Shown: piece by piece, positions 7,968 to 10,868 of the stretch
Position numbering within the stretch: the stretch's first letter is position 1
Layout of the letters: the number at the start of each line of letters is the position of its first letter
Source of the DNA: Escherichia coli O127:H6 str. E2348/69
Lineage (GTDB): Bacteria > Pseudomonadota > Gammaproteobacteria > Enterobacterales > Enterobacteriaceae
NCBI RefSeq assembly: GCF_000026545.1
Contig: NC_011601.1
DNA length: 64,000 bases
Direction: 5' to 3' (one strand)
Position numbers and translations under genes: made by a program
Notes under the pieces: model-generated
Databases searched by the model: none
Told to the model about the DNA's origin: nothing
The model's input: the letters and a program-made list of their open reading frames with translations, nothing else

Positions 7968-9059
7968 GTGGTATCAGGTTCAAGAACTACAGTGGGAGTC
8001 GGATTTGACTGCGCGATTTATGCACGTAAATGCCTTGTGGCGGATTAATGGCTGCAGTATCTTCTCCTTCCGCGCCTGCAAAATCAGGCGTCAGAATTAG
8101 CCTCCTGAAAACCGTTACAGGAGACTTCTCTATAGACTACAATCCTTGTCCCTGACTGCGATTTACTCGATCTATTGTTCGTTCCCTTATAATGCCACTA
8201 TAGATTTTACCGCCTTGGTCGACAACTGCGCCCGCTTTGCCGAATCCCTGATAGAAACCTAGGATCTTGCGCTGTAGCTTACCCTCTGCGGGCGATCTTG
8301 TACTGCTGCAACTCACGCAACACGACCTCATCCCGCCGCATCTTAACGAAAGCCTGCTCAGTGATACTCTCCCCACCATGCCAGAGCAGGTTATTTCTGA
8401 ACCTGATTCTTGTGCGAATATTGCCTCGTGCGGGCTGTGCATCATCGCCGCTCTTTGATAAGAGGCGTCAAAGGTAAGGGGCGTAGCGTTATTAGTTTGG
8501 GCTATACACTTGCGCTACAACTCTTCAAATAGCTATATATCAACAATATTTAGCCATAAACCGTCTACTTCCGTCTCAATTATACTCAAATTAAGGCATG
8601 CGGCATCTTTGTGACACATTTGTTTTTTTTATACAGGTTAGAGTTGACCTGCTCTCCGTTGATTAACTCACATTGTTGTTAACCACGTCTACTTTTAGCA
8701 CGACACTGATGCGTTAACTGAGCGAATGGTCTGCTTTGAGCGAGGAACGGACGTTCGCTTTCGGGTAACCTAACCCATATGCCAGAGGATCTCTAAGAGA
8801 TAATGGGTCGTTTAAGCGTGGCACTTACAGTATCAACGCCTCCGCACCCGACAACGTCTTGACTGCTGCAGATTCACTGAATAGACTGGTGACCTTTATC
8901 TTCATTTTGCGTGCAGCAAAATAAAGTTTTTGACTTACGAAAATCGTCGATTCGACTTAATTATACTAAGGGTTTTATGCTGACTTTTCATTGTGGGATA
9001 CACTAAATTAGTGAGATGAGAATTTATCTAACTGTCATTAACATAAGTAGGATTTAAAA

Positions 9060-9428
9060 ATGGCTAATAGCGAAATTGTTCCGTTTTCTGAAATTGTTAC
9101 AAGCAAAATAGACCTCAATCAAGCTGTAGCTCAAGGTCAAGAGATGACTGATACTCTTAAAAAAATGGGTATCAAAGAAGCGACATTTGATAGTGGAGCT
9201 TACTATAAACATGATCACGAATCGCAGACCACTACTCTTGCAGCTGATGGAATCTTGATGCGGCAGAGCCTCCACATTACAACAGTTATTTTCCGTAACG
9301 AAGGAAGTACTGAACAACAAGCTTTAGAGGAGCTTAATGCTGGTTCTCTGACACAAAAAACCTTAGGTGCATTCTCTGGAGTCTCTCAACAGAGAGCGTC
9401 TGAGCTACTCCAAATTGAAAAAGAATAA
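9060..9428 (+). CDS. Hypothetical protein (122 aa) with a C-terminal helix-turn-helix-like segment
   Basis: ORF in a low-GC block; AGGA ribosome-binding site upstream; C-terminal TQKTLGAFSGVSQQRASELLQIE resembles XRE-type HTH. Confidence 0.5.
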   Translation: MANSEIVPFSEIVTSKIDLNQAVAQGQEMTDTLKKMGIKEATFDSGAYYKHDHESQTTTLAADGILMRQSLHITTVIFRNEGSTEQQALEELNAGSLTQKTLGAFSGVSQQRASELLQIEKE

Positions 9429-9497
9429 TTATAAATAGGTTAGTAACGGCAGTTTTCTGCCGTTACTAAGAGTATTTACTCAAAATTAGGGAGTATT

Positions 9498-9884
9498 ATG
9501 GGATTCAATGACCAGCCCAAAAACCTGAAAAAATCCATTAACGATAAATATAACAGAAGGGTAAAGTCACTTTCTCGGCATCTCGAGGATTTTATTTATC
9601 ATGCAGAAATGAAACTGGACGAATCTATTTCTGGAAGGATTTATCGCAGAAGCGAGATTGAGTCAATTGTTGAGAAAGTAAAAGAATTGATGGCTATCCT
9701 TCCGGCTTCAGATGAACCTCCTTCAATTAATTTTGATATTCTTGAAATCATTGAGAATGCAACAGAAGAAACTCAGCGCATTTTATCAGAAGGACAAAAA
9801 TTCTTCGACAACCTCTCTCCTGAAGAATTGGCAGAAATGATATCAACATTCCAACAAAATAAAAAAGATAGTGAATCTGAGTGA
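9498..9884 (+). CDS. Hypothetical protein (128 aa), acidic and predicted helical
   Basis: ORF 70 bp downstream of and co-oriented with the previous ORF; GGGAG ribosome-binding site; no recognisable motif. Confidence 0.45.
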   Translation: MGFNDQPKNLKKSINDKYNRRVKSLSRHLEDFIYHAEMKLDESISGRIYRRSEIESIVEKVKELMAILPASDEPPSINFDILEIIENATEETQRILSEGQKFFDNLSPEELAEMISTFQQNKKDSESE

Positions 9885-10464
9885 TAACCCAGTTTAATAC
9901 GATATGAATCTAAGTCTAAACTATCAAAAAAAGCAGATAGTGAACTTAAATAGATATTATGAGAAGCTCCGAGTTTGCGTGGCTTCCTTTATCTATGTGG
10001 TCAACCTACAGACACCCAATGAAATAAATCCTTTCATTTCATTGAAGTGTTTAAATAAACTCCATCGGGAGCCTTTTTTGTTTGAAGATCTGCTCCCCGT
10101 TGATTAATACATCGTGATGTCACCAATGTCCGCTCTTGGCACTCAACTGCCATAGGCGGGCCCAAGGGCAGCTTCGAACGCAGGCTGTATGAAAACTCTG
10201 ATTGCTGATAGAAGGTCACGCGTTTTGATGACTTCTTAGAAAATTTACATAGAAAGATGATGCAGATTTTACTTAAAAGCGCAGGCGTCAGCCTCTTTTG
10301 CATTCACCTCTGAAGCTTAAACCGTTTTCACACAGTCTGAGCGAATTACAGACGCAACACTAAGTTTATTGCGCCCTTGAGCACAATCTTGACCAATGTG
10401 TAGAACTCATTGGAAAAAAAAGTGCGGAAAATAGAGAATTAACTCAAGTTTTGTTTATATAGTT

Positions 10465-10868
10465 CTAAATGAATTTATCATGCCAAAAATACGTTGCGCC
10501 AGTTACATTTTGTGCATGAACTTGCCCATATTCAAATGTAGGTTCTTTCTTCATATGTTGCGTATTCAACTCTGGTTTACTCCAATAAATCAAGTTCGCT
10601 TCAAATTCACTCAATAGTTTCTCAGCGAAATCAAAAGGCTTAATCCATTCTATTGGGATGGTTTTGCTGTTTTTTAAAAAAACAACGCAGCACAAATATA
10701 TACGCTTTGACAAATTGTCATATTTAGGATGGTGTAACTTAGTAATTGCGCTATGGCCTGAAGAAAATCGTGAGCTCTTCGATGATGTCTTGCCGATGTA
10801 AACAAGCCTTTCATTTTCATCATCTCCAACTGTAATCAAATAAATAGGATAACAAGCTAGAGGGGCCT
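10465..10868 (-). pseudogene. GIY-YIG-like domain protein, 5' end replaced by the IS3 terminus
   Basis: Translation shows PIYLI...(11 aa)...VYIGKTS, matching the GIY-x(9-11)-YIG nuclease motif; the first codons of the track ORF lie inside the IS3 inverted repeat. Confidence 0.4.

Follow-up and report, generated by a model that had tools for sequence, protein, structure and literature searches.

Two unrelated mobile cassettes probably form the low-GC block beside the RptR defence island of Escherichia coli E2348/69

We analysed a stretch of 64,000 nucleotides (hereafter the window) that matches the chromosome of Escherichia coli O127:H6 strain E2348/69 with 100% identity, and within it a block of low G+C content (positions 8460-10868) that holds two small co-directional open reading frames (ORFs), here called A and B, and a convergent, truncated ORF of GIY-YIG nuclease type. 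This block is probably made of two unrelated mobile cassettes in tandem, which take up the first 2.1 kb of a slot with variable cargo. On one side of this slot is the island encoding RptR, a type I restriction-modification (R-M) system and DarTG, and on the other the YeeP-GTPase/Ag43 module of a CP4-like island; we place its extent at ~8752-16804 because the conserved right flank survives at 16804-16980. Cassette 1 (8729-10142) would consist of two intact, selected genes bounded by palindromes of ~24 nt. Cassette 2 would be what is left of a solitary GIY-YIG gene, joined to cassette 1 at such a palindrome and killed by the insertion sequence IS3.

The original prediction, made from the sequence letters, had described an AT-rich block with this gene content, and every element that it listed was found in its place. 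The G+C fraction is 0.38-0.40 throughout the block (0.398 in 8460-8728, 0.378 in 8729-10124 and 0.386 in 10125-10868), against 0.53 in the flanking hsdM (0.526) and IS3 (0.536) and 0.500 in the full window. The two co-directional ORFs, of 122 and 128 amino acids (aa), are intact and 69 nt apart, and each has a Shine-Dalgarno-like sequence ahead of its start, TAGGA at 8 nt for A and GGGAG at 7 nt for B; RefSeq lists them as hypothetical proteins WP_000013660.1 and WP_000506573.1. The idea that the block is horizontally acquired small cargo beside an R-M system is also borne out, and the cargo near sites of the kind described below is, elsewhere, often defensive.

The evidence for cassettes lies in the positions at which homology to other genomes breaks off. 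The left flank (8560-8752) is conserved in 247 E. coli genomes, and the homology always ends at 8752-8761. Beyond this point the cargo differs by strain, up to the YeeP-type GTPase gene: a 314-aa protein in NCTC86, a 459-aa and a 172-aa protein in the O157 strain 180-PT54, an anti-phage dGTPase with a 200-aa tyrosine recombinase and a 238-aa protein in 88-3493, and ParA with two proteins in SCEC020026. Units carrying both A and B were found, free of IS, in a metagenome contig (L013; comparison loci are cited by L numbers), 95% identical over 8729-10151, and in Yersinia enterocolitica (L015), 93% identical over 8738-10142. The homology of these two units starts at 8729-8738, their left ends being at GGTCTGCTTTGAGCGAGGAACGGAC, and they share with a third unit, which carries B only (L017), the right end ...AATGTCCGCTCTTGGCAC, with homology ending at 10142-10151. 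Homology to the GIY-YIG context (L002) starts at 10125, and the 27 nt from 10125 to 10151 align closely to both parents.

These breakpoints fall on a repeated motif. Written as a regular expression, the motif matches 23 times in the 340 kb of loci collected, where shuffled sequence gave 1.6 matches on average, and the whole window holds two exact matches only, both at homology breakpoints: GTCyGCT-N10-AaCGGAC on the left and GTCCGCTyyTGGCAC on the right. When 16 left and 16 right sites were aligned, they proved to be imperfect palindromes of ~24 nt with 7-nt arms (GTCCGCT/AGCGGAC) and a centre of ~10 nt, GAGCGA-type in left sites and TGGCAC-type in right sites, left and right sites being in direct orientation. 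The left site was found to the left of 16 different cargos. This architecture has the anatomy of a tyrosine-recombinase core site. Folded as attC-like hairpins, 8640-8735 and 10055-10155 gave no significant structure (z -0.6 to -1.3).

Sequence comparison also provides direct evidence that site-bounded units move between unrelated loci, because the 314-aa cassette of the NCTC86 island is near-identical (99.3% over 1,210 bp), exactly site to site, to one carried by the Qin prophage of strain 38. The cassette leader recurs in another strain as well: 8728-8832 is 83.7-84% identical to E. coli NGF1 (L014 6000-6104). The leader (8753-9059) is without an Rfam match. In NGF1, L014 1-6104 holds an integrase and then ten co-directional small genes with spacers of ~100 nt, the left site and the shared leader standing at the end.

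An 18-nt direct repeat, CTGCTCYCCGTTGATTAA, is present ~60-70 nt to the left of the left site (8649-8666) and ~20 nt to the left of the right site (10090-10107), where 0.01 would be expected by chance. Both copies extend into ~50 nt of diverged similarity, and a third version stands to the left of the A-B unit of L013. The repeat may be an accessory arm of the recombination sites.

The GIY-YIG-like character of the convergent ORF was confirmed, with a spacing of 13 residues between the two tyrosines instead of the 11 first proposed. The truncated ORF (10465-10881, minus strand, with a fortuitous GTG included) comprises 134 codons, the 3' two-thirds of a 209-aa gene. A search for the intact gene, as had been advised, found the 209-aa homologue in ~450 of 5,426 complete E. 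coli genomes; these share 10125-10868 with the window and lack A-B. Strain KW21, for example, has the intact gene. The reported cut of the 5' end by IS3 was confirmed: 10868 is the last position with homology to the intact gene and 10869 the first of the IS3 terminal repeat, with the loss of codons 1-75 and of the promoter. The IS3 transposase itself is annotated with a programmed frameshift. RefSeq leaves the GIY-YIG ORF of E2348/69 unannotated, and no Shine-Dalgarno sequence precedes the GTG. To all appearances the window copy is a pseudogene and does nothing.

The intact protein matches the Pfam GIY-YIG family PF01541 weakly (E=0.0027, 18.4 bits, model positions 3-74 of 78) and phrog_1111, an endonuclease family, at 0.0041; a search of phages with it gave no match. 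Residues Y84, Y98, R108, H113, E164 and N176 are invariant in 23 homologues, and all are kept in the window fragment. In E. coli the intact gene lies at the end of a lambdoid prophage beside icd, flanked by DUF3800 and DUF4236 genes; sites delimit both it and the DUF3800 gene, each as a unit of its own. Among the homologues examined, Photobacterium and Aeromonas included (L002, L022, L023, L024), there is no conserved partner and no A-B. In the Photobacterium aphoticum locus (L022) the non-coding left end of an IS110-family element occurs three times (4680-4995, 6972-7305 and 8240-8564), each copy immediately upstream of a different gene, the GIY-YIG homologue included, and with a transposase in the first copy only.

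It had been suggested that the three ORFs might be one module, a reading in which the nuclease would be the effector. Adjacency speaks for such an arrangement, and does so in E2348/69 only; in the other loci examined the nuclease gene never accompanies A-B, and the IS-free A-B units continue into other genes, PDC-S71 in L013 and a TolA-like gene with DUF4238 in Yersinia. As the gene is instead part of a different cassette, 99% identical to the prophage-borne gene of the ~450 A-B-less genomes and joined to A-B on the recombination-site motif, we give a three-gene module almost no credence.

The pair itself is very rare in E. coli, being present in 3 of the 5,426 genomes, all of the E2348/69 lineage. 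In L013 the gene that comes after it, PDC-S71, is a PADLOC candidate defence gene and not a nuclease gene. Pectobacterium has an A that is 79% and a B that is 50% identical to the window copies, 12 bp apart, and the adjacency of A and B is restricted to E. coli, Yersinia and Pectobacterium, all Enterobacterales. A and B nevertheless appear to be separable genes that do not depend on being paired: in other Gammaproteobacteria, either one also occurs by itself as a single-ORF integron cassette. For A, this is seen in Stenotrophomonas sp. MYb238 (L005), where it fills exactly one cassette of an integron with intI beside ilvD followed by at least 16 attC sites (GCCTAAC...GTTAGGC); the intI-ilvD arrangement has been described for Xanthomonas integrons (10.1101/2025.06.18.660453). 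A was further found in an attC-like array on a metagenome contig (L008), beside AbiH in Cellvibrio, elsewhere upstream of SspBCD, as cargo of a Tn7-like element, and, at the margin of a small prophage-like element, as the gene immediately following an integrase. In PSTCR3, a temperate phage of Providencia, a homologue with 41% identity occupies a moron position, flanked by Q and the lysis genes and on the strand opposite to theirs. The loci with A and without B are L004, L005, L008, L009, L011, L018 and L020.

For B without A the loci are L017, L026, L027, L030 and L031. A degenerate DNA-pattern scan found distant homologues of B in four A-less metagenome contigs, and in L026, which is among the four, it is a single-ORF cassette between canonical attC sites. 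The B-only unit of L017 is homologous to the window from 9436, inside the hairpin of the A-B spacer, to 10142. This hairpin is a perfect stem in the window (DNA fold -15.4 kcal/mol, z=-8.0) and an imperfect one in L013, L015 and L017, with one compensatory change from G:C to A:T. It may act as an attenuator or an operator, or be what an old cassette junction left behind. Its interpretation as a relic of attC was considered and rejected as unproven, the palindrome being too short, free of extrahelical bases and off consensus in its cores.

Neither protein gave a significant match in PADLOC, PHROGs, NCBIfam, Pfam or the PDB, in keeping with the statement that they belong to no family that can be named, and at E<=0.01 none of the PADLOC-DB v2 families matched A, B or the intact GIY-YIG protein. 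By tblastn, both were without a match in plasmids, and in phages there was one distant match to A and none to B; scans of IMG/VR found neither. Stenotrophomonas was the sole match of A in a scan of GTDB species representatives. The toxin-antitoxin reading that had been offered for the pair is unlikely, since A and B are each found alone: the obligatory co-occurrence that characterises type II systems is absent, as is a recognisable toxin fold or family in either protein. This leaves room for a partnership of A and B specific to a lineage.

One form of such a partnership would be a true two-gene module, acting in defence or abortive infection or as an atypical toxin-antitoxin system, with A as sensor or regulator through its helix-turn-helix (HTH) and B as effector, and with the solo copies degenerate or otherwise partnered. 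The pair is indeed kept as one site-bounded cassette in three independent contexts and is operon-like in Pectobacterium, with purifying selection on both genes; other cassettes of the same system carry defence genes, and SspBCD, AbiH and PDC-S71 are among the neighbours of A elsewhere. We consider it unlikely all the same. A exists as a complete single-ORF integron cassette and as a solo phage moron, B as a complete single-ORF cassette and in four further contexts without A, and neither protein has a PADLOC model. Nothing in PADLOC, PHROGs, NCBIfam or Pfam marks B as an enzyme, a toxin or a membrane protein; it is helical and, beyond its basic N-terminal motif, acidic. B is intact in E2348/69 and frameshifted in Yersinia, where A is intact, a state that a toxic A would make lethal and that tells nothing if the toxin were B.

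The two genes are nonetheless maintained. The ratio of non-synonymous to synonymous substitution rates (dN/dS) is 0.22-0.46 for A and 0.27 for B, which indicates purifying selection on both; when A is compared with its Pectobacterium copy, dS is saturated and dN is 0.15. Across orders of Gammaproteobacteria A keeps a constant length and 53-80% identity, and its AlphaFold model shows a confident and consistent fold. One might have regarded A and B as functionless junk decaying in a region full of IS3, IS66 and IS30 copies and pseudogenes, given the rarity of the pair in E. coli and the frameshift in the Yersinia B, but with these values of selection and conservation such decay is very improbable.

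Structure prediction of A, another of the checks advised, gave a confident N-terminal fold without structural relative, followed by a putative HTH. The family is rare, with 61 members in a profile search of 1.84 billion representative proteins, and nearly all of them are single-domain proteins of ~100-150 aa, without fusions; the few shorter entries seem to be fragments. The model, built on an alignment of 53 sequences (confidence score, pLDDT, 87), has a long helix, an antiparallel meander of five strands and three C-terminal helices, these last at pLDDT ~85-93 and with partial Foldseek matches to HTH structures (probability 0.4-0.84). Against the PDB, Foldseek of A found nothing at E<0.2, and its relatives by structure in AFDB50 are all unannotated; the predicted N-terminal fold is new. 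A resemblance to uL18 (GIKE..FD.G.Y.H) was weak (Pfam E 0.45, PDB E 0.36), with a different predicted topology, and was judged to be due to chance. The XRE-HTH-like end noticed at the outset is supported by the signature TQ..lGA..G.SQ..VS and by the three modelled helices, together with Pfam matches to HTH_3, Xre-like-HTH, Sigma70_r4 and MarR_2 that are weak (best E 3.9e-3; none of the 53 members reaches 1e-3). M1, Q99, Q110 and S114 are invariant in the 53 members, and the last three lie within the signature. A is most likely a small dimeric DNA-binding protein that would act autonomously; the invariant residues of the family, M1 aside, sit in the recognition element of the putative HTH. We would guess that, expressed from mobile DNA, it acts in the manner of a repressor or in exclusion.

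What might move such cassettes is suggested by the 200-aa tyrosine recombinase met in the slot of 88-3493. It consists of the catalytic domain only and scores far below the NCBIfam cut-offs for Xer and IntI. Its accession is WP_001399565.1, and that of the ATCC 25922 copy WP_001305361.1. Of the 5,426 E. coli genomes 884 contain it, in CP4-like islands as well as in the Qin prophage, and every array examined has it between a right and a left half-site (L033 6431-7033, L035 and L036 6001-6603, L026 5424-6035). The arrays of ATCC 25922 and of strain 38 (Qin prophage) that include it also have HEC-08 and PD-T7-1 cassettes; the copy in L026, a B-bearing metagenome contig, shows 73% identity, and in L017 it is a pseudogene beside the B-only unit. 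The cargo at such sites in other strains includes dGTPase, PD-T7-1, HEC-08, PDC-S71 and nSTAND3. From this association we infer that the recombinase would excise and integrate the site-bounded cassettes.

In L026 a 22-nt direct repeat of the left-site motif (858-879 and 6079-6100) brackets a unit of 5.2 kb that contains an attC-type array, the B homologue included, and the small recombinase; two kinds of cassette site are thus combined in one element.

One might speculate further that Enterobacteria possess an integron-like system that is not an integron, in which the small recombinase shuttles cassettes of one or two genes, with sites of ~24 nt, between prophage ends and CP4-like islands, its cargo comprising dGTPase, PD-T7-1, HEC-08, PDC-S71, Avs-like NTPases and the orphans A-B and GIY-YIG. 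We put this forward tentatively, mechanism and cargo together, as possible rather than probable. Several observations weigh against the reading of the block as site-bounded cassettes with autonomous genes. The link between recombinase and sites is one of association only; the E2348/69 window contains no copy of the small recombinase, and a chimeric query of left plus right flank did not find an empty slot. The adjacency of A and B across E. coli, Yersinia and Pectobacterium, with a gap as short as 12 bp in the last, points to some functional coupling there. The spacer palindrome, a candidate target of A, is only imperfectly conserved. The low pI of A, 4.9, is uncommon among DNA-binding proteins, and its Pfam HTH matches are all below threshold. 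In the literature we found no paper with the motif, the recombinase accession or such a cassette system, though our coverage was incomplete and a prior description is possible.

Table 1. Positions in the window of the cassettes, their boundary sites and the adjoining features.
Feature	Position	Strand	Remark
rptR (7669-7908) and three TTAGCTAAA operator repeats (7935-7970)	7669..7970	-	First gene of the RptR-HsdMS-DarTG-HsdR-M48 island abutting the slot; context only
Left boundary site, imperfect palindrome GTCTGCT-TTGAGCGAGG-AACGGAC	8729..8752	+	Cargo starts directly after GGAC
Cassette 5' leader	8753..9059	+	First ~80-100 nt recur after the left site in E. coli NGF1
ORF-A, 122 aa, pI 4.9	9060..9428	+	Predicted helix, five-strand beta meander and C-terminal three-helix HTH; rare family
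Perfect 13-bp stem with TTTT loop in the A-B spacer (30-31 nt, GTAAC...GTTAC)	9440..9469	.	Marks the start of the L017 B-only unit
ORF-B, 128 aa, pI 4.9	9498..9884	+	Conserved basic N-terminal motif PKN..S...KYNRR; uncharacterised family
Right boundary half-site GTCCGCTCTTGGCAC (15 nt)	10128..10142	+	Junction of A-B with the GIY-YIG cassette; 16 right sites aligned
Second-cassette remnant: 3' flank and codons 76-209 of a solitary GIY-YIG gene	10143..10868	-	Apparent pseudogene; 99% identity to L002 8001-8743
IS3 copy truncating the GIY-YIG gene	10869..12126 (far end approximate)	-	Terminal repeat TGATCCTACCC at 10869; ORFs 10899-11765 and 11762-12070
Conserved right flank of the slot, TGGCACAGAGCGGACTGTCAG...	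16804..16980	+	Upstream of the YeeP-type GTPase gene; 99.4% identity to NCTC86 (L021 10924-11100)

The slot occupies ~8 kb in E2348/69, most of it taken up by IS3, IS66 and IS30 copies, and its right flank comes after a right site in L021, L033 and L034. On the left it abuts the RptR-HsdMS-DarTG2-HsdR-M48 (RRDM) island, which has been cloned from E2348/69 and shown to defend against phages (PMC12255303). The active cloned fragment ends 159 bp upstream of rptR, leaving A-B outside, and its authors noted the IS elements on the flanks of the island and did not mention the A-B ORFs (PMC12255303). Control of A by RptR was considered and dismissed: a lone TATCTA at 9025-9030, a permitted variant of the operator repeat found 30 nt upstream of ORF-A, is at chance level in AT-rich DNA.

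Two further observations concern the surroundings of the block. An Rfam scan of 7600-11000 found no match within the A-B/GIY-YIG block. The rptR promoter and the hotspot are separated by a conserved spacer, in which 8059-8133 (plus strand) gave sub-threshold matches to c4-a1b1 (34.3 bits; gathering 46.7) and isrK (33.7; gathering 50), RNA elements of P1/P4-type antisense immunity, and diverged E. coli relatives of this stretch carry the annotation 'ash family protein'. Downstream of the hotspot, at ~19480-22900 in the window (L001 23084-26501), lies a trio of dynamin-family, RdcB-family and patatin-like phospholipase genes, and the same trio is found downstream of the recombinase-bearing cassette array of ATCC 25922 (L035 8976-12603).

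As first described, the block is ordinary: next to a defence island that is already characterised, it offers a dead nuclease gene and two orphans. Its value lies in the breakpoints. Two unannotated protein families circulate both in the integron pool and in a second cassette pool. If the proposed system exists, it would explain how defence genes arrive at hotspots without a visible mobile element, a problem raised in PMC10121019, and A and B would be new stand-alone conflict genes common to this pool and to that of integron cassettes. Any gene between two such sites becomes a candidate for defence or counter-defence, which makes for a cheap search of cargo.

It remains to compare these elements with known systems. 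Intact relatives of the GIY-YIG gene keep the Y, Y, R, H, E and N of the superfamily (PF01541), and some are named GIY-YIG nuclease family protein by NCBI; they form a distinct 209-aa family (phrog_16890), with a private N-terminal domain of 75 aa and no partner gene, the window copy being truncated. The RRDM island (~1869-8067 by annotation) is the immediate neighbour of the block and has a small HTH-type regulator encoded at the edge of its defence genes, but RptR, 79 aa and all-helical, is unrelated to the 122-aa A with its beta meander and putative HTH.

The pdif modules of Acinetobacter plasmids are bounded by XerC/D sites that resemble dif (11-6-11), and use the XerC/D of the host. They share with the cassettes described here the arrangement of discrete modules between short core-type sites and the occurrence of identical modules across replicons. 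The sites here have sequences unrelated to theirs, and the arrays are accompanied by a small recombinase of their own.

Integron cassettes are likewise short, mostly single-gene, promoter-poor units between imperfect palindromic sites, set in tandem arrays with a tyrosine recombinase in the array, and homologues of A and of B are themselves bona fide integron cassettes; integron cassettes are also rich in defence genes (10.1101/2024.07.02.601686). The differences are nevertheless several. The window is without attC cores (RYYYAAC...GTTRRRY) at the cassette ends and without IntI or another integrase in or near the block; the sites are GTCCGCT-N10-AGCGGAC of ~24 nt and not folded attC hairpins of 55-140 nt; the recombinase has 200 aa and the catalytic domain only; and the arrays lie in prophage ends and CP4-like islands, not at an attI platform.

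Many of the island, prophage and satellite defence hotspots of E. coli hold recombinases only, with the means of mobilisation not known (Hochhauser et al. 2023, PMC10121019). Like them, the slot of E2348/69 is a fixed chromosomal position with strain-specific defence cargo. Those hotspots were defined by their flanking core genes, whereas here a specific site, repeated from cargo to cargo, marks the breakpoints and hints at a mechanism.

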